Assembly: GCA_027031765.1 (NCBI GenBank)
Contig: JALVPN010000060.1
Coordinates: 1-6,027, forward strand
Reading direction: 5' to 3'
DNA: 6,027 nucleotides
Source of the DNA: Promethearchaeota archaeon
GTDB lineage: Archaea; Asgardarchaeota; Thorarchaeia; Thorarchaeales; Thorarchaeaceae
Shown: piece by piece, positions 1 through 6,027 of the stretch
How positions within the stretch are numbered: the stretch's first letter is position 1
How the letters are laid out: each line of letters begins with the position of its first letter
Notes under the pieces: model-generated
Seen by the model: only the letters and a program-made list of their open reading frames with translations
The model's database searches: none
What the model was told of the DNA's origin: nothing
Made by a program: the position numbers and the translations under genes

Positions 1-2
1 TC

Positions 3-833
3 GGCAGCCAGAGGGCCGCAATAGAGGACCCGTCACTGGCGGACACTTTCAGGGTCGTGCGTGATTCAGCCCCGTCCGTACCCGTGATTGCCAACATTGG
101 CGCGACGCACGTGGAGCTGGCACCGGACGCTGTAGAGATGATAGATGCTGATGTCCTTGCTGTGCACCTCAACCCTCTACAGGAGGCTGTGCAGCCGGAG
201 GGTGACTGTGACTCGGAGGGGTTCCTGGACAACATAGCAGCCATCGTTGACACGGTCGACGTCCCGGTGATAGTGAAGGAGACCGGTGCAGGGATCTCCG
301 GCGAGGTGGCCCAGATGCTCGAAGAGGTCGGTGTGGACGCTGTTGATGTCGGCGGCGTGGGTGGGACGAGCTGGGCGGCTGTGGAGTACTACCGTGCGCT
401 GCAGGAGGACGACCCGGTCAAGACCCAGCTGGGGCTGGAGTTCTGGGACTGGGGCATCCCCACGGCACTCAGCGTCATCATGGTGCTCGATGCCACCGAC
501 CTCGATGTCATTGCCACAGGTGGCATACGTACAGGCCTCGATGTGGCGAAAGCCCTCGCCCTCGGGACAGTTGCCGCTGGTGTTGCACACCCGCTGCTCC
601 GGCCTGCTGTGAATGGTACCACCGAGGACATCGTCGCGCAGCTCAACGCACTGTTGGAGTCGTTGCGCGTGGCCATGTACCTCACGGGCTGCCTGACCGT
701 CGATGACCTCGCATCGGTGCCACTTGTGATAACTGGCAGGCTTGCCCAGTGCCTCGAGTCCCTGAACCTTGATGTGAGCAGGGTGGCCCTCGGCGTGCGC
801 AAGGTGCCGGAGGTCAGCGACGAGGAGATCTGA
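3..833 (+). CDS. fni: Type 2 (FMN-dependent) isopentenyl-diphosphate delta-isomerase, 5'-truncated by the window edge
   Basis: The frame of ORF 57..833 is open back to base 3 (GSQRAAIEDPSLADTFRVVRD...), so the listed start at 57 is internal. IDI-2 motifs present: GSQR, ANIG, HLNPLQE, PEGD, PVIVKETGAG, DVGGVGGTSW, WGIPT, ATGGIRTG, AKALALG. Stop TGA at 831-833. Confidence 0.96.
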   Translation, partial: GSQRAAIEDPSLADTFRVVRDSAPSVPVIANIGATHVELAPDAVEMIDADVLAVHLNPLQEAVQPEGDCDSEGFLDNIAAIVDTVDVPVIVKETGAGISGEVAQMLEEVGVDAVDVGGVGGTSWAAVEYYRALQEDDPVKTQLGLEFWDWGIPTALSVIMVLDATDLDVIATGGIRTGLDVAKALALGTVAAGVAHPLLRPAVNGTTEDIVAQLNALLESLRVAMYLTGCLTVDDLASVPLVITGRLAQCLESLNLDVSRVALGVRKVPEVSDEEI

Positions 834-945
834 CTGCTGGTGCCGGGTGTTGTCCCCGGACGGGCACGGCTGACACCCACGGGGACTGTCCTGTGTATGG
901 CGCAGACAGGTCTGTCCATGTTGGAGTCGGTGTGCCCGGAGCTGT

Positions 946-972
946 GATGTGGGGCCCATGGGATGTGGGGCC
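946..972. repeat. 11-bp direct repeat GATGTGGGGCC x2 in the convergent intergenic region
   Basis: Identical copies at 946-956 and 962-972, separated by CATGG. Function unknown. Confidence 0.6.
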
Positions 973-995
973 GTAGTGTCAGTTGCGCCAGTAGT

Positions 996-2480
996 TCAGA
1001 GGGCGCCGACACGCTGGAGGTATTCTGACCACTTGCGGATGCCATTGAGCATCTGCACGGCCTCCTCTATGGTGTCACCGCAGGGGATGCCGTTGAGCTC
1101 GAAGCCACGGATTATGACCTCGTACTTGTCGAGGTAGGGGACGTAGGCGACGACCGTCTTCTTGTGCCGTTTGGCCACGTTGGCCACGCGTGCGCCGATC
1201 TGGAGCGAGATGCCGGGTGCGTAGGGCAGCAGCAACAGGAGGGCTGCGTCTATGTAGTCGAGCGCGAGCATCTTGTCAAGGACGCGTTCGTAGTCTATGT
1301 CGGAGGCGCTACCCGTCAGGTCAATCGGGTTGCGGAACGAGGCAATCCCCTGATAGGCCGGTGTCATGACGGAACGCATGGCCTCCTGGTCCTCTTCCTT
1401 GAAGGGTGGGAACTCAAGGCCGTAGTAGGCCGCCTCGTCCGACGCGATGACACCATGGCCGCCACTGACCGTGAGCGTCCCGACACGCTTCCCCTTCATC
1501 GGGCGGGGCCCGAAAGAGAACACCTTTGAGTATGCCATCACCTCGTCCTCGTCCATTGCTTCGATCACGCCGAACTGCCTGAAGGCAGCCGAGACCACTG
1601 CACCATTTCCCGCAAGCGACGAGGTGTGACTCTGTGTGGCCCTGTGCCCTGCTTCTGACTGGCCACCCTTGAGCACCACGATTGGTTTCTTCCTTGCGAC
1701 CCGGGCACACTCCTCGACGAACCGCCTGCCCTCTCCCGGCCCGAAGCCCTCAATGTAGGCCAGGATGACACGGACGTTGTCGTCCTCGCCGAAGAACCGG
1801 ACAAAGTCGGACACCGTGGTCTGTGCCGAGTTCCCAATGGACACCGCTGCTGCAATGCCCACGTCCCTGTCCGCGAACTCTTCGAGGCGCTCAACGAGCC
1901 AGCCACCGCTCTGGGACACTATGGCCACGTTGCCGTACCTGGGCCTTGCGACCCGCTCGGACGGCAGGAAGAACGTGTCCACACGGTCCGGCACGAACAC
2001 ACCTATGCAGTTCGGCCCGACCATGGTGATATTGTACTGGTTGGCAATCTCAACGATCTCGTGCTGGAGGGAGCGTCCAGACTCGCCGGTCTCGCTGAAG
2101 CCTCCAGACACCACGATGACCGAGCGTATCTTCTTGCGCCCGCACTCCTCGAGCACTCCCGGCACGAACCTCGCCGGGATTGATATTACTGCGAGCTCAA
2201 TATCGTCGGGGGCCTCGGTTATGGACTTGTAGACCTTGACGCCCTCGACCGTACCCCCTTTCGGGTTGATGGGGTAGGTCTTGAGCCCATTCTCGAAACA
2301 CAGTTTCCTGAAGATGACGTTGCCCGGCGAAAACGGGTTCGACGTGGAAACGCCCACTACAGCTGTGACCTTTGGGTTCAGCATCGTCTTGAGACCTGCA
2401 ATCACATGACCACGCTCACGAGTGTTCAGTATGTCCGTCCGGCTGCGGCGCTGACGGGCCGCCGTGCTAGTCTGCCCCAT
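996..2480 (-). CDS. acdA: Acyl-CoA synthetase (NDP-forming) / acetate-CoA ligase alpha subunit (CoA-binding domain plus two ligase subdomains, no ATP-grasp domain)
   Basis: CoA-binding fold motifs LNPKVTAVVGVS, YPINPK, ELAVISIPA, VSGGFSE, VGPNCIG. Further family motifs VSQSGG, VSIGN, YIEG, KPIVVLKGG, phospho-His motif SHTSSLAG (H285, bases 1626-1628), TVSGGHGV, NPIDLTG. Symbol is family-level; substrate not determinable. True start may be downstream (GTG 2405 or ATG 2384). Confidence 0.9.
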   Translation of the reverse strand: MGQTSTAARQRRSRTDILNTRERGHVIAGLKTMLNPKVTAVVGVSTSNPFSPGNVIFRKLCFENGLKTYPINPKGGTVEGVKVYKSITEAPDDIELAVISIPARFVPGVLEECGRKKIRSVIVVSGGFSETGESGRSLQHEIVEIANQYNITMVGPNCIGVFVPDRVDTFFLPSERVARPRYGNVAIVSQSGGWLVERLEEFADRDVGIAAAVSIGNSAQTTVSDFVRFFGEDDNVRVILAYIEGFGPGEGRRFVEECARVARKKPIVVLKGGQSEAGHRATQSHTSSLAGNGAVVSAAFRQFGVIEAMDEDEVMAYSKVFSFGPRPMKGKRVGTLTVSGGHGVIASDEAAYYGLEFPPFKEEDQEAMRSVMTPAYQGIASFRNPIDLTGSASDIDYERVLDKMLALDYIDAALLLLLPYAPGISLQIGARVANVAKRHKKTVVAYVPYLDKYEVIIRGFELNGIPCGDTIEEAVQMLNGIRKWSEYLQRVGAL

Positions 2481-2487
2481 CGGTCTG

Positions 2488-2493
2488 ATTTAA
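2488..2493 (-). promoter_or_regulatory. Possible archaeal TATA box (TTAAAT on the minus strand) for the acyl-CoA synthetase gene
   Basis: One of the few AT-rich hexamers in a GC-rich intergenic region, directly abutted upstream by a 20-bp palindrome. It is too close to ATG 2480 for that codon to be transcribed, so it would imply a downstream start. Confidence 0.3.
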
Positions 2494-2496
2494 GCC

Positions 2497-2516
2497 TGTG
2501 GGAGATGTGTCCCACA
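2497..2516. promoter_or_regulatory. Inverted repeat TGTGGGA-N6-TCCCACA, candidate transcription-factor operator
   Basis: Perfect 7-bp arms (2497-2503 and 2510-2516) with a 6-bp spacer, located where a BRE would lie relative to the candidate TATA. Confidence 0.4.
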
Positions 2517-2635
2517 TATTGCTCGTGCTGTCCCTCGGGTGGGGCCGGGTACACATGCCACCGTGATGCCGGTGGGAGCCCCCATGTCCGGTGGCCGTTG
2601 AATGAGTGCTCCTGCGACCGTCTTGTTACCAGCGG

Positions 2636-3724
2636 CTAGGGCTTCATCTGGGCCAGGACCTCGCGCAGGCGTGGCTCCGCAAGGATGCCGAGCTGGATCT
2701 TGCAGAGCAGCTTTGCGGTCTCGGCATAGATGACCCTGCGGGTGTCATCGCTGTCGCTGCTCGCACTGTCCACGGCCTCCTCACAGCGCTGGTTGAACCG
2801 TTTTATGATGCGTTTCTCAAGGTCTGGACCCCCCCAGTCGAAGCCGTCCAGTGCGGCCTGTGCTTCGAGTATCTTCTCCTGCACGTTCACCTCGCCCCCT
2901 CTCAGGACCTCCTCCACGCCTGCAAAGTAGCTGGCCACGGCCCGTTCAATGCGGGCCTTCTCAGAGGGCAGCAGGTCCTTCTCCTGCGGGCGCTTCTGGT
3001 GGAGTTCCTGTAGGAGCCTGGCACCAGGCGCCTCCGTGAGCAGCCCTTTGATTATCCTGACTATGAAACGCGAAGGGGTCTCCACCACATCGGCAAAGTA
3101 GGGGCTCTTTGACCTGTACCGGTGGATCTCCTTGAGGACCTCGAGCCAGAAGACGGGCAGGAGGACGTGACAGCGTACCGAGTACTGTTCAATCATCCTC
3201 TGGTGCTGACCGATGAACCCCCACGCATCGTCCTCAATCTCGGCCTTCAGGTACGGCTCCTCAGGCTCTTCTGGGGCTGCCTCCACCAGTGTGAGTGGTG
3301 GCACCGTGTCCGGTGATGGTGCTGGTGTCATCCTTGAGAGCTGGGCACCCTCAGGCACGACCTCAGCAGGCGGCCGTTCTCTACCGTCGTCGAGGAGCGT
3401 GAGGATCTCCATGGTGGGTGTGCGCGCCTGTTCTGCCCGTTGGGCCCTGTAGGCAAGCTTGGGCAGGAGGCTCTCGATCTGTGAGAGGCGCTTGACGATG
3501 AGGCCCATGATGTTGGCCGTGGACTGGGAGAGCTGTCCCGGTGCGAGGGTGCTCTCAATCCACTTGCGGGTCCTCTTCAGTCCCTGTGTCAGCGAGTCCA
3601 CCCTGTCCGGGTCCACGCGCCCCTCAATCTGGGTGCTCAGCAGGAAGTGCATGAGCGTGGCGTTGAGGGTGGCAATCAGTAGCAACCTGTCCATGAGCTC
3701 TTCTTGGGAGAGCGACTCACTCAA
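2636..3724 (-). CDS. Hypothetical protein, 362 aa, predicted alpha-helical, two domains joined by a Pro/Glu-rich linker
   Basis: Long ORF with protein-like composition. TTG start at 3724 lies 5 nt downstream of a strong SD (GGGGTGATC) that overlaps the stop of the upstream gene. TAG stop at 2638-2636. No family recognised. Confidence 0.85.
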   Translation of the reverse strand: MSESLSQEELMDRLLLIATLNATLMHFLLSTQIEGRVDPDRVDSLTQGLKRTRKWIESTLAPGQLSQSTANIMGLIVKRLSQIESLLPKLAYRAQRAEQARTPTMEILTLLDDGRERPPAEVVPEGAQLSRMTPAPSPDTVPPLTLVEAAPEEPEEPYLKAEIEDDAWGFIGQHQRMIEQYSVRCHVLLPVFWLEVLKEIHRYRSKSPYFADVVETPSRFIVRIIKGLLTEAPGARLLQELHQKRPQEKDLLPSEKARIERAVASYFAGVEEVLRGGEVNVQEKILEAQAALDGFDWGGPDLEKRIIKRFNQRCEEAVDSASSDSDDTRRVIYAETAKLLCKIQLGILAEPRLREVLAQMKP

Positions 3725-3729
3725 CGGGC

Positions 3730-3738
3730 GATCACCCC
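3730..3738 (-). promoter_or_regulatory. Archaeal-type Shine-Dalgarno GGGGTGATC overlapping the stop codon of the tubulin-like gene
   Basis: The minus strand reads ...GCC ATG GGG TGA TC GCCCG TTG. GGGGTGATC matches the GGAGGTGATC consensus (complement of the 16S rRNA 3' end) with one mismatch. Confidence 0.75.
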
Positions 3739-5135
3739 ATGGCTGGTGTTCCAGTGGTGTCTGCTGGCGTCATGTAGTAGCTGAACAGTTCCCTGAAGTC
3801 CTCGATGGCACTCACGAGCTCCTTTCGTGTCGTCCCCTTTGCACGCATGAACCAGCCCTGTTTGAGTGGTGATGCCCCACTGTGCAGGTTCACAAGCTGG
3901 GTCGCCTCGTTGATTATCTGGGCGAGTTCGGGTATCTTGGGCAGCCCGAGCAGGAGGAGCAGGTTTGTGGGTGCCTCCGAGTAATGGTACTGGACGTAAC
4001 AGGGCGTGATGGCAGCGCCGGGTGCGACGAACTTCTCCAGGGCCTCCTTGAGGTGCATGCCGTACTCGGCCTTTGCGATGTGCCTCGGCCCACTGAGGAC
4101 GTAGTACACACTCTCCGCATTGGGCTGTTCGCCGACATCCGCATATGAACACTGTTTGACCGCATAGTCGATCATTGCACGCAGCTGCTGCGGCATGCTG
4201 CCGGCGTCGGGTATCAGGCCCACATCGGTGTACAGTGCGGGGACCACCACCGGGTCGAGTTTGTGCGAGTAGTCTGCGAGGTCTGTGGTCGGGAACACGT
4301 CCTTGCCACTCTCGTACACGCCGGGCGAGAGCATTGCCTCCACCACGTCCAGGGCCATCGGGTTGACCAGTTCCACAAAGGCCTGTTCCGTCCTCTTCTC
4401 AAGGTCGCCCGCCTCGTCCAGTGTTGAGGGCACCATCCTCTCGATGGAGGCGATGTCCGCAATGTCCACGTCGAGCTCCCGCTGGAGGTAGTCCACACTC
4501 TCACTGGTCCGGCTCCGGAGGATCCGTTTCAGCATTGTCCTGTTGCTCAGCAGGATTGTCAGGTTGGCCCCACGGTCCTGGAGCTGGGCCCTCATGAGCT
4601 TTGAGACCGCCCAGATTGAGTTGAGGGCCTCACTGGACTGTCCCTCGAAGGGCAGGACCCCTATGACGTAGACGAATATCCTGCGGCCCTCCTCCTCCTG
4701 GAACCGCTGTTTGAGGAGCTCTATGAGTGCCGGCGTGCCACCGCAGCCGGTACCACCACCGAGGCTCGTGAAGATGCAGAACCCCGAGACCCCTTCGAAC
4801 CCGAGGCCGGCGAGCTGGTCGAATATGATGTCCTTGGCCTCGTGCACTGCCCTGTAGCCGTCCATGAACCGGCCGCCCACACCGATGTCGCTGTCACCGT
4901 AGAGCAGCGTGTTTTCTTTGGGGATCTCGTACTTCTGGCGCACTTTCATGAGGTCGGCCCGGTCAGTGTTCATGAGCAGGTAGCCCCTGACGCGGGACGG
5001 CAGCCTCTTGTCGGCACTTGTCTTGAGGTACGAGCCTACAATATTGGACCCGCACTCTCCGATACCAATTGCAAACACTTCTGCAGCCTTTGCAGAGTCG
5101 TCGTCAGAACCTCTCGGCATCCTTTGCACCTTCAT
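3732..5135 (-). CDS. Divergent tubulin/FtsZ-superfamily GTPase (467 aa)
   Basis: Signature loop SLGGGTGCG (aa 124-132), T1 GIGECGSNI (24-32), T2 MNTD (55-58), T3 GVGG (85-88), T5 VLPFEG (160-165), T6 ILLSN (194-198), T7 TTDLAD (283-288), all in the correct order. Start may be ATG 5135 or ATG 5120; both have an upstream GAGGT/AAGGTG-like SD. The subfamily cannot be assigned by eye. Confidence 0.93.
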   Translation of the reverse strand: MKVQRMPRGSDDDSAKAAEVFAIGIGECGSNIVGSYLKTSADKRLPSRVRGYLLMNTDRADLMKVRQKYEIPKENTLLYGDSDIGVGGRFMDGYRAVHEAKDIIFDQLAGLGFEGVSGFCIFTSLGGGTGCGGTPALIELLKQRFQEEEGRRIFVYVIGVLPFEGQSSEALNSIWAVSKLMRAQLQDRGANLTILLSNRTMLKRILRSRTSESVDYLQRELDVDIADIASIERMVPSTLDEAGDLEKRTEQAFVELVNPMALDVVEAMLSPGVYESGKDVFPTTDLADYSHKLDPVVVPALYTDVGLIPDAGSMPQQLRAMIDYAVKQCSYADVGEQPNAESVYYVLSGPRHIAKAEYGMHLKEALEKFVAPGAAITPCYVQYHYSEAPTNLLLLLGLPKIPELAQIINEATQLVNLHSGASPLKQGWFMRAKGTTRKELVSAIEDFRELFSYYMTPADTTGTPAMG

Positions 5136-5529
5136 CCAACCTCTCTTTGTCGCTCCGATCTGTCACGTCAATACAGCAGGTGGTCGCAGGCCCGCTGCCA
5201 CGAGTCCCGTGCAGCCCTGTCCGGAGGCCATGCGTTAGTCCTCAGCCAACGTCTTGGGTGACCAGACGCCTATTATTTCTGCCGTGCATGTACCCGCTAC
5301 TGTCCAGTGCCGTGAGTGTGCGGCCCCGGGTGTCCCCCAGTGGTGGCAGCACAGTCCCTGCAGCTTCGCGGCCAAGTGCAGTACTACCGCCCTGACGGGC
5401 CGGCTGACGGTGGCCTACTTGGTGGGCCCTGTCACCAGTGGTACCTGGCAGCCCCGGTGTGGACATCCCTGTCCACCTGGCCACCGCAGGCACCCGCAGT
5501 GCCCGTTTGCTCACAGTCCCAAATAAACT

Positions 5530-5580
5530 GTATCGTGACCGCCCGCAGCCGCGTAGCCCGTGCACTTGGCGTCACGGTAC
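5530..5580 (+). other. Potential stem-loop in the large intergenic region
   Basis: GTATCGTGAC (5530-5539) can pair with GTCACGGTAC (5571-5580): 10 bp with one G-U pair. Extendable inward by GCC/GGC and GCA/TGC. Confidence 0.3.
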
Positions 5581-5648
5581 GCCCAGTCGACGGTGAGCAC
5601 ACCAATCCTCTACAGACATTTCCCGAGACGTCCCAGTCGCGTCCTGTC

Positions 5649-6026
5649 CTACCCGCGCTTCTCGACCATGCGGCGCGCGAGTTCTCGCACTGCCCATGTC
5701 AGGTACGAGCTGATGTCCTCTCTCCCATAGGTGTCCCGGATGCGCTTTGCCGTGTCTTCGAGGAACCGTTCCCGCTCGTCGGCGCTGGCCGTGGGACTGA
5801 ACTCGGTCATGAACATACGGAGAGACTTGTGCCAGTCGTCCATCTTCTCGGCCTTGGTCAGCCACTTGGTGCGCATGTCCATGATCTCGTTGAAGAGCTC
5901 GATGGCCTTGTCGAGGACAGTGGCCTGTCTGAGAGCCTCCTCCTTCTCGCGGAGGGTCCTCAATGGGAATATGAGGCGTGAGAAGTCGTCCGGGTGCCTG
6001 TCGTAGACGGCCTCGATTGTGGAGTA
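5649..6026 (-). CDS. Hypothetical alpha-helical protein, C-terminal 125 aa only (5'-truncated by the window edge)
   Basis: The frame of ORF 5649..5963 stays open to the window end (YSTIEAVYDRHPDDFSRLIFPLRTLREKEEALRQ...RRMVEKRG*). Charged amphipathic helical pattern; codon style matches the neighbouring genes. Confidence 0.8.
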   Translation of the reverse strand, partial: YSTIEAVYDRHPDDFSRLIFPLRTLREKEEALRQATVLDKAIELFNEIMDMRTKWLTKAEKMDDWHKSLRMFMTEFSPTASADERERFLEDTAKRIRDTYGREDISSYLTWAVRELARRMVEKRG

Positions 6027-6027
6027 G

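Follow-up and report, generated by a model that had tools for sequence, protein, structure and literature searches.

How far can the C-terminal architecture of tubulin extend beyond tubulins themselves? The question is raised by a gene on a 6,027-nucleotide stretch of DNA from a Thorarchaeota genome (contig JALVPN010000060.1, positions 1 to 6,027; hereafter the window; GC content about 0.62), which encodes on its minus strand a 467-residue GTPase of the tubulin/FtsZ superfamily (P0001; open reading frame 3732-5135, translated part 3735-5135). A first-pass annotation of the letters alone proposed that this otherwise FtsZ/CetZ-looking protein ends in the helices H11 and H12 of tubulin. In microtubules H11 and H12 form the exterior, where motors and microtubule-associated proteins (MAPs) dock, and to our knowledge they have so far been regarded as diagnostic of true tubulins, a group that comprises the eukaryotic proteins together with BtubA/B, OdinTubulin and AtubA/B. 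Structural modeling and profile comparison of the GTPase and its orthologues indicate that its C-terminus very probably does fold into tubulin-type H11'/H12 helices.

The proposed helices occupy 3774-3941 on the minus strand, exactly residues 399-454 of the GTPase, and every string quoted in the first-pass annotation is present in the translation: TNLLLLLGL corresponds to residues 390-398, PKIPELAQIINEATQLVNLH to 399-418, the W...YY segment to 428-454, and the terminal MTPADTTGTPAMG to 455-467. The protein was modeled template-free with AlphaFold2 on an alignment of 40 sequences (mean predicted local distance difference test score, pLDDT, 84.5; predicted template modeling score 0.85). In the resulting model the last β-strand, equivalent to S10 and assigned by DSSP, spans residues 391-397 (3945-3965, minus strand, as are all features of this gene), and is followed by an H11-like helix at residues 402-417 (3885-3932; pLDDT about 90), a short H11'-like helix at 423-432 (3840-3869) that carries W428 and F429 and runs into K433 and G434, and an H12-like helix at 437-454 (3774-3827) with one conserved hydrophobic face. 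The three helices are modeled at pLDDT 87-92, with values of about 90 across residues 400-450. The remaining tail, residues 455-467 (3735-3773), is short, variable, non-acidic and disordered, with pLDDT below 50 for residues 457-467.

Two structure searches with this model agree that past approximately residue 425 only tubulins sensu stricto align, and that all of them reach residues 456-457. OdinTubulin (score 31.9-35.2, length 363) aligns as far as residue 457, while β-tubulin, BtubA/B and AtubB (31.5-34.0, 355-364), α-tubulin (30.5, 360) and γ-tubulin (29.9, 364) each align as far as residue 456. The alignments of CetZ (PDB 4b46, 4b45 and 3zid; 32.5-34.4, 318-325) end just past the H11-like helix, at residues 416-425, in agreement with CetZ having H11 only; those of TubZ and PhuZ (21-28, 283-349) end at 418-424, and that of FtsZ (28.4, 300) stops at 399, directly after the S10-equivalent strand. 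These end-points fit what had been proposed for FtsZ, which lacks the helices, and for CetZ, which has an H11-like helix only. At the level of prediction, the tubulin arrangement of H11, H11' and H12 on the outer surface is present in the Thorarchaeota protein.

The model also bears on what the helices might do. Helices 423-454 are modeled as packed onto the body of their own subunit, and the linker that follows H11 is only ~5 residues long, both of which argue against a reading in which they serve as an inter-subunit or tethering element that reaches a neighboring subunit or a membrane adaptor. Such elements have parallels in the superfamily, as the C-terminal tails of TubZ and PhuZ are generally known to make filament contacts and the C-terminal peptide of FtsZ behaves likewise, and W428, F429, R/K431 and K433, all invariantly basic or aromatic, could also form a binding motif. 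The conserved positions nevertheless share a single hydrophobic face, as is usual for helices that pack against a protein body, and we regard a tethering role for these helices as very improbable.

The assignment of H11'/H12 is also reflected in sequence profiles. A family profile of residues 398-460 was aligned by hhalign with the last 61 columns of a tubulin profile, the latter drawn from a β-tubulin and from AtubA/B-like, Odin-like and BtubB-like sequences. In this comparison the tail scores 27.6 against tubulin H11'-H12 (P = 2.3e-5). Across 300 column shuffles the scores averaged 9.4 (standard deviation 2.1) and never exceeded 18.4, and the reversed profile reached 9.4. The local alignment comprises 33 columns, running from G427/W428 to T460 against β-tubulin H396-A428, with a single gap past the W-aromatic pair. 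When the tail was compared with the whole tubulin alignment its best placement was β-tubulin 397-429 (29.1; runner-up 13.7), and reciprocally the tubulin tail found residues 428-464 of the family (28.8; runner-up 11.5). Control comparisons scored far lower: 13.8 for CetZ tails against tubulin, 14.0 for the family against CetZ, and, for a further clade of superfamily members described below (clade A3), 11.1 against tubulin and 8.8 against the family. An alignment of 73 diverse superfamily sequences by MAFFT L-INS-i recovered the identical tubulin register unaided. The alignment that had been proposed from the letters alone, a W-aromatic pair shifted by one residue followed by G...L/F..A..D/N...L...Y, was thus obtained independently by two methods, and the isolated C-terminus has tubulin H11'-H12 as its reciprocal best match. 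An H12-like motif, R-x-N-L-x-x-Y, was also picked out by eye from the A3 tails in the MAFFT alignment, and was rejected on its non-significant hhalign score against tubulin.

Conservation within the family follows the same pattern. Among 40 orthologues, whose overall identity falls to 49%, four residues never vary (W428, F429, K433 and G434) and five more (L440, A443, D446, L450 and F451) show conservation of 90% or higher; the conserved residues lie on one helical face, as expected of a packed H12. Judged by these profiles, the similarity between the tail and tubulin exceeds chance. The segment differs from its eukaryotic counterpart in charge, being near neutral (mean +0.7, versus +3 in OdinTubulin, +1 in BtubB, and -8 plus an acidic tail in eukaryotic β-tubulin). 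Family tails beyond it average 7.7 residues with a net charge of -0.8, consistent with the earlier remark that the protein lacks an acidic tail.

Several observations weigh against this view of the protein. The structural evidence for this region is prediction throughout, and the structure alignments provide first and last aligned residues only, rather than a residue-level superposition of H12. AlphaFold, having been trained on many tubulins, could favor tubulin packing when given a W-aromatic...G motif. Full-length profile-profile comparison of the family (A1) with tubulins, and searches of the family profile against PDB sequences, align the GTPase core only; the similarity of the tail emerges only when it is compared by itself, and its absolute significance is modest (hhalign probability 32-76%). 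Tubulin_C was found in 0/40 members at E <= 0.01, whereas Asgard tubulins included as positive controls do match. Finally, the family lacks the long H1-S2 loop of tubulin (about residues 31-57 of β-tubulin). Two blocks of this loop, at β-tubulin 31-40 and 49-57, occur in 70% or more of tubulins; the family lacks both, as do CetZ, clade A3 and FtsZ, and microtubule-type lateral contacts, in which the loop is involved in tubulin, are therefore not expected. Together with an insert of the family's own at approximately residues 212-249, this means that the indel states argue against tubulin membership.

One alternative account of these data is that helices 423-454 are an extension peculiar to the lineage, borne by a CetZ-like protein: a pair of amphipathic helices, held by an aromatic residue, that arose in the Asgard clade or in a CetZ-like ancestor, with the likeness to tubulin produced by convergence and by AlphaFold bias. 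The short H1-S2 loop common to the family, CetZ and FtsZ favors this account, as do features of the GTPase core that are discussed below. The tail itself does not: its match to tubulin H11'-H12 is co-linear and reciprocal, far above shuffled and reversed controls, whereas CetZ tails match neither tubulin tails nor family tails. Moreover, the matched positions include the buried anchors (W, aromatic, G, L, A, D/N, L and Y) and so go beyond helical periodicity, and CetZ_C was detected in 0/40 family members, compared with 24/24 canonical CetZ controls. We therefore consider a convergent, lineage-specific tail unlikely.

The core of the protein tells a different story from its C-terminus. Pfam recognizes PF00091 alone in the 467-residue protein, at residues 19-202 (4530-5081; E = 1.3e-18, 68.4 bits versus a cut-off of 33), a span that was recovered again in a genome-wide search; Tubulin_C (PF03953), CetZ_C (PF21011) and FtsZ_C gave no Pfam match in it even at E <= 1, and residues 380-467 searched by themselves gave no Pfam match. 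The hallmarks of the superfamily are all present at the sequence level. PF00091 matches 40/40 members, the T4 signature GGGTG-x-G is invariant as GGGTGCGG, and T1 (GIGECGSN) has the tubulin-like form G-x-C-G. The T7, or synergy, loop TTDLAD (residues 283-288; 4272-4289) follows directly on the core helix H7 (residues 244-272 in the model) and contains the acidic residues D285 and D288. The T1, T4 and T7 motif residues are invariant throughout the family alignment. Between H6 and H7 lies an acidic insertion of ~40 residues (205-243; 4407-4523), which is specific to the family and modeled at pLDDT 55-76. Its counterpart blocks in the alignment, 212-230 and 240-249, are missing in tubulin, CetZ and clade A3, and the first of them also in FtsZ. 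The insert adjoins the longitudinal (nucleotide) interface and could modulate polymerization.

By sequence, the GTPase domain is nearest to CetZ (CetZ1 7.5e-12, Methanosaeta thermophila CetZ 3.2e-8, CetZ2 7e-7), versus 2-4e-5 for OdinTubulin, BtubA, AtubA and γ-tubulin, so the description of the core as CetZ-looking holds. This proximity is one of the points in favor of the CetZ-like account of the tail introduced above. To place the family, a tree was computed in IQ-TREE under LG+C20+F+G4 with posterior mean site frequencies, from core residues 17-398 (338 columns, 73 rows); tail columns were deliberately excluded, and fourteen long-branch rows were left out (P0152, P0156, P0157, P0159, P0160, P0164, P0172, P0185, P0186, P0189, P0192, P0198, P0202 and P0205). 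The family is monophyletic (support 100/99). Together with a sister pair from unassigned metagenome contigs, P0128 and P0140, it is sister to a clade of 13 sequences, A3 (97/89), whose members lack CetZ_C. A3 is probably the published 'Halo.Tub' group, as suggested by its haloarchaeal-looking acidic members and by the position of Halo.Tub beside the Asgard clade in published trees. Canonical CetZ, in which 24/24 sequences carry CetZ_C, forms a separate clade (100/98), as do tubulins (100/100, branch length 1.89), and the family falls outside both. Nor is it an FtsZ: it does not group with the FtsZ clade, and its fold does not end after S10 with a flexible linker and C-terminal peptide.

The first-pass annotation had gone further than the helices, placing the protein near the tubulin side of the superfamily or as an intermediate between FtsZ and tubulin, and this part of its interpretation is not established. 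A split uniting tubulins, the family and A3 against CetZ and FtsZ received support of 92/76, a weak lean toward tubulins. Against this, the family is excluded from the tubulin clade and lacks both Tubulin_C and the long H1-S2 loop, and approximately unbiased (AU) tests did not reject trees in which the family was constrained to group with CetZ, whether alone (difference in log likelihood 14.3, p 0.113) or together with A3 (7.1, p 0.147). The AU results are thus compatible with a CetZ-like origin, the conclusion toward which Santana-Molina et al. also inclined from indels and midpoint rooting (Santana-Molina et al. 2023, PMC9871819). Overall, the protein represents a distinct lineage between CetZ and tubulin that, as modeled, combines a CetZ/FtsZ-style core, a short H1-S2 loop and a ~40-residue acidic insert before H7 with a C-terminus of tubulin arrangement.

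Two side observations concern this tree. The sister pair P0128 and P0140, joined to the family at 100/99 and 32% identical to it, has a related tail of the form Y-V...A-V..V..Y-F. In addition, the tubulin clade includes a 438-residue protein of the gammaproteobacterium Microbulbifer epialgicus (P0162). It matches Tubulin and, weakly, Tubulin_C, its end resembles H12 and its tail is acidic, and it would be a bacterial tubulin from outside Verrucomicrobia.

The gene is an ordinary member of its subfamily, whose distribution is broad within Asgard archaea. Orthologues of 450-475 residues share 82-87% identity within Thorarchaeota, 60-77% in other Loki-class lineages, 49-56% in Heimdall, Hodarchaeales and Hermod, and about 44% in Baldrarchaeia. 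A profile search detected the family in 115/301 sampled Asgard genomes, among them genomes of Heimdall/Hodarchaeales and of Baldr. In some families of the GTDB taxonomy nearly every genome has it (66/76, 15/19, 19/21, 5/5 and 4/4 genomes), and the same search did not find it in others (0/68 and 0/28). It is usually single-copy; several large genomes of another Asgard lineage, GTDB family f22, contain two copies (about 785 and about 688 bits), which indicates a lineage-specific duplication. The source genome (2.95 Mb, 95% complete) contains three PF00091 genes, of which P0001 is one; the other two (E = 3.9e-49 and 8.5e-46) are read as FtsZ1 and FtsZ2 on account of their much higher PF00091 scores. 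When 1.8 billion representative proteins were searched exhaustively, no more than five fell below 1e-30, and three of those were short fragments; the family is therefore compact.

True tubulins, identified by PF03953, occur in 7/301 of the sampled Asgard genomes, in GTDB families f3, f14 and f21. No genome (0/301) contains both a PF03953 tubulin and a member of the family, which is found in 0/18 genomes of those three families; the two may thus be alternatives to one another, a suggestive pattern that rests on a small sample of related and incomplete genomes, with three tubulin-bearing lineages. This non-overlap is what might be expected if the protein were itself a degenerate true tubulin that has lost the long H1-S2 loop, diverged in its intermediate domain and acquired new partners, with H11'/H12 persisting as a relic. 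The tubulin-type tail, the G-x-C-G form of T1 and the lean of the core tree toward tubulins are likewise compatible with such a history. However, the tubulin clade excludes the family with full support and a long branch, Tubulin_C was found in none of the 40 members, the GTPase profile is closer to CetZ, and the non-overlap carries the limits just given. A degenerate tubulin is accordingly an improbable explanation.

We instead consider it likely that the protein belongs to an Asgard-specific subfamily in which a CetZ/FtsZ-style core bearing the tubulin-type series H11-H11'-H12 forms a GTP-dependent polymer, with an outer face available to the products of neighboring genes. Because its T1-T7 motifs are intact and invariant, GTP-dependent head-to-tail polymerization is the best-supported mechanism. 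GTP would be bound through loops T1-T6, as in all characterized relatives. Subunits would then associate head to tail. In this arrangement T7, which is invariant and predicted to be the catalytic loop, would complete the GTPase site of the adjacent subunit and activate hydrolysis there through D285 and D288. H11' and H12, packed by their conserved hydrophobic face onto the globular body, would line one outer face of the protofilament, which would be near neutral rather than acidic. It is on this face that the two helical proteins whose genes flank that of the GTPase would most likely dock.

That genomic context constitutes a three-gene module, in which the GTPase gene is the middle member of a trio retained in Thor, Loki-like, Heimdall and Baldr loci. 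Across these lineages the upstream gene encodes a helical protein of 900-1170 residues and the downstream gene a protein of 300-360 residues. The downstream partner in the window (P0002, 362 residues; 2636-3724, minus strand) is co-oriented with the GTPase gene and begins 7 nucleotides past its stop codon. Its AlphaFold2 model comprises an N-terminal helical part, a disordered linker rich in proline and glutamate, and an all-helical C-terminal domain with pLDDT above 95. Immediately downstream of the GTPase orthologue, homologs are encoded in the Loki-like locus (5e-42), in Heimdall (8e-19) and in Baldr, where the match is to the Loki-like protein (8e-13). The fold of P0002 matched nothing in the PDB by Foldseek at E <= 1e-3 and nothing above a template modeling score of 0.26 in a structure search of the ESM Atlas, and Pfam gave nothing better than E 0.3.

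The upstream partner, P0207, is a 902-residue helical protein of which the window contains the 3' end (5649-6027, minus strand); the gene runs past the window to contig position 8357. It has homologs directly upstream of the GTPase orthologue in the Loki-like locus (27% identity, 2e-116) and in Heimdall (1e-23), and the upstream protein of the Baldr locus matches the C-terminal part of the Loki-like one (8e-13). P0207 belongs to no Pfam family, Pfam searches with the proteins that flank the GTPase in Heimdall and in the Loki-like locus yielded only noise at E > 0.01, and a feature search of the Atlas with the large partner retrieved its own Thorarchaeota cluster only. A complex prediction for the GTPase (A1) with the downstream partner (A5) returned 'no answer' with a score of 0.00, which speaks neither for nor against binding.

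The clade to which this gene belongs has been described before. The name 'Asg.Tub' was given to it by Santana-Molina et al. (2023, PMC9871819), who had four sequences, two of them from Thor (SMTZ1-83 and AB-25) and two from Heimdall (LC-3 and B3-JM-08); it has also been named the 'CetZ-related Asgard archaeal clade', and used as an outgroup (PMC13394414). Sequence comparison identifies P0001 as the Thorarchaeota orthologue of this clade: in the supplementary Asg.Tub alignment the C-terminal stretch of LC-3 is that of P0115 in A1, and the Thor sequences are of the same family. The earlier study found Asg.Tub unstable between CetZ and tubulins, leaned toward 'CetZ-like' while noting 'limited similarity to CetZ', reported that a C-terminal hidden Markov model starting at approximately residue 219 matched no other family, and noted unknown coiled-coil neighbors (PMC9871819). 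Our core tree reproduces the same instability, and the flanking genes are likewise coiled-coil-like. H11 and H12 are not mentioned in that study, which was the sole match in a full-text literature search on H11/H12 in Asgard tubulins. Within the searchable literature, therefore, the clade is already known, and the assignment of a tubulin-type tail appears to be new. A much wider distribution (115/301 genomes, and Baldr) and the conserved three-gene module are further additions to the earlier study.

Comparison with better-known relatives sharpens the distinctness of Asg.Tub. From tubulins sensu stricto it differs in having no Tubulin_C domain, no long H1-S2 loop and no paired A/B genes, in its extra H6-H7 insert, in sharing only 14-21% identity with them, and in its position outside their clade. 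From CetZ (Haloferax volcanii CetZ1/2 and M. thermophila CetZ) it is set apart by the absence of CetZ_C and by its extension past H11, where CetZ structures end and where CetZ tails give no H11'/H12 profile match. Clade A3 resembles the family in its sister position and its lack of CetZ_C, just as Halo.Tub adjoins Asg.Tub in published trees, and is distinguished by a C-terminal profile with no significant match to tubulin or to the family, and by different genomic partners. The CetZ-like protein of Haloquadratum mentioned below is a relative of this clade.

The very probable presence of tubulin outer-surface helices on a CetZ-like core provides a testable handle on the order in which tubulin features originated, and bears on the origin of the microtubule surface; as modeled, it would be of interest for cytoskeleton evolution, while resting on prediction. 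One tentative and rather doubtful extension is that Asg.Tub is the closest surviving prokaryotic sister of tubulins, such that H11'/H12 predates true tubulins and the operon partners are forerunners of MAPs. If so, the long H1-S2 loop and lateral contacts would be the later tubulin innovations, and the two partners would be archaeal filament-associated proteins that read the H11'/H12 surface. The analysis also nominates the two conserved partner proteins as candidate archaeal filament-binding factors.

Further features of the locus were noted. A 513-bp GC-rich stretch without a convincing open reading frame (5136-5648) separates P0207 from the GTPase gene, and an Rfam search of the window gave no match; in the Heimdall, Loki-like and Baldr loci (L001, L003 and L019) the upstream and GTPase genes abut or overlap. 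The locus of P0128 (L020), the one locus examined for the sister pair, lacks the large upstream partner and instead has SMC/ScpA and dihydroorotate dehydrogenase genes upstream. After the trio, the window contains a gene resembling the alpha subunit of ADP-forming acyl-CoA synthetase (996-2480, minus strand; CoA_binding and Succ_CoA_lig), which also occurs in the Loki-like locus L003 and is probably merely a conserved neighbor. Beyond the window (L010:3576-5480, plus strand; contig ~8575-10479) lies a divergently transcribed gene for a 634-residue protein, an arrangement that neither the Heimdall nor the Loki-like locus shows. Its first ~270 residues contain several sub-threshold Pfam matches to WD40/β-propeller families; for a haloarchaeal CetZ-like protein, that of Haloquadratum, a link has been drawn to a sorting system of adaptin-like type that includes propeller proteins (PMC10936438).

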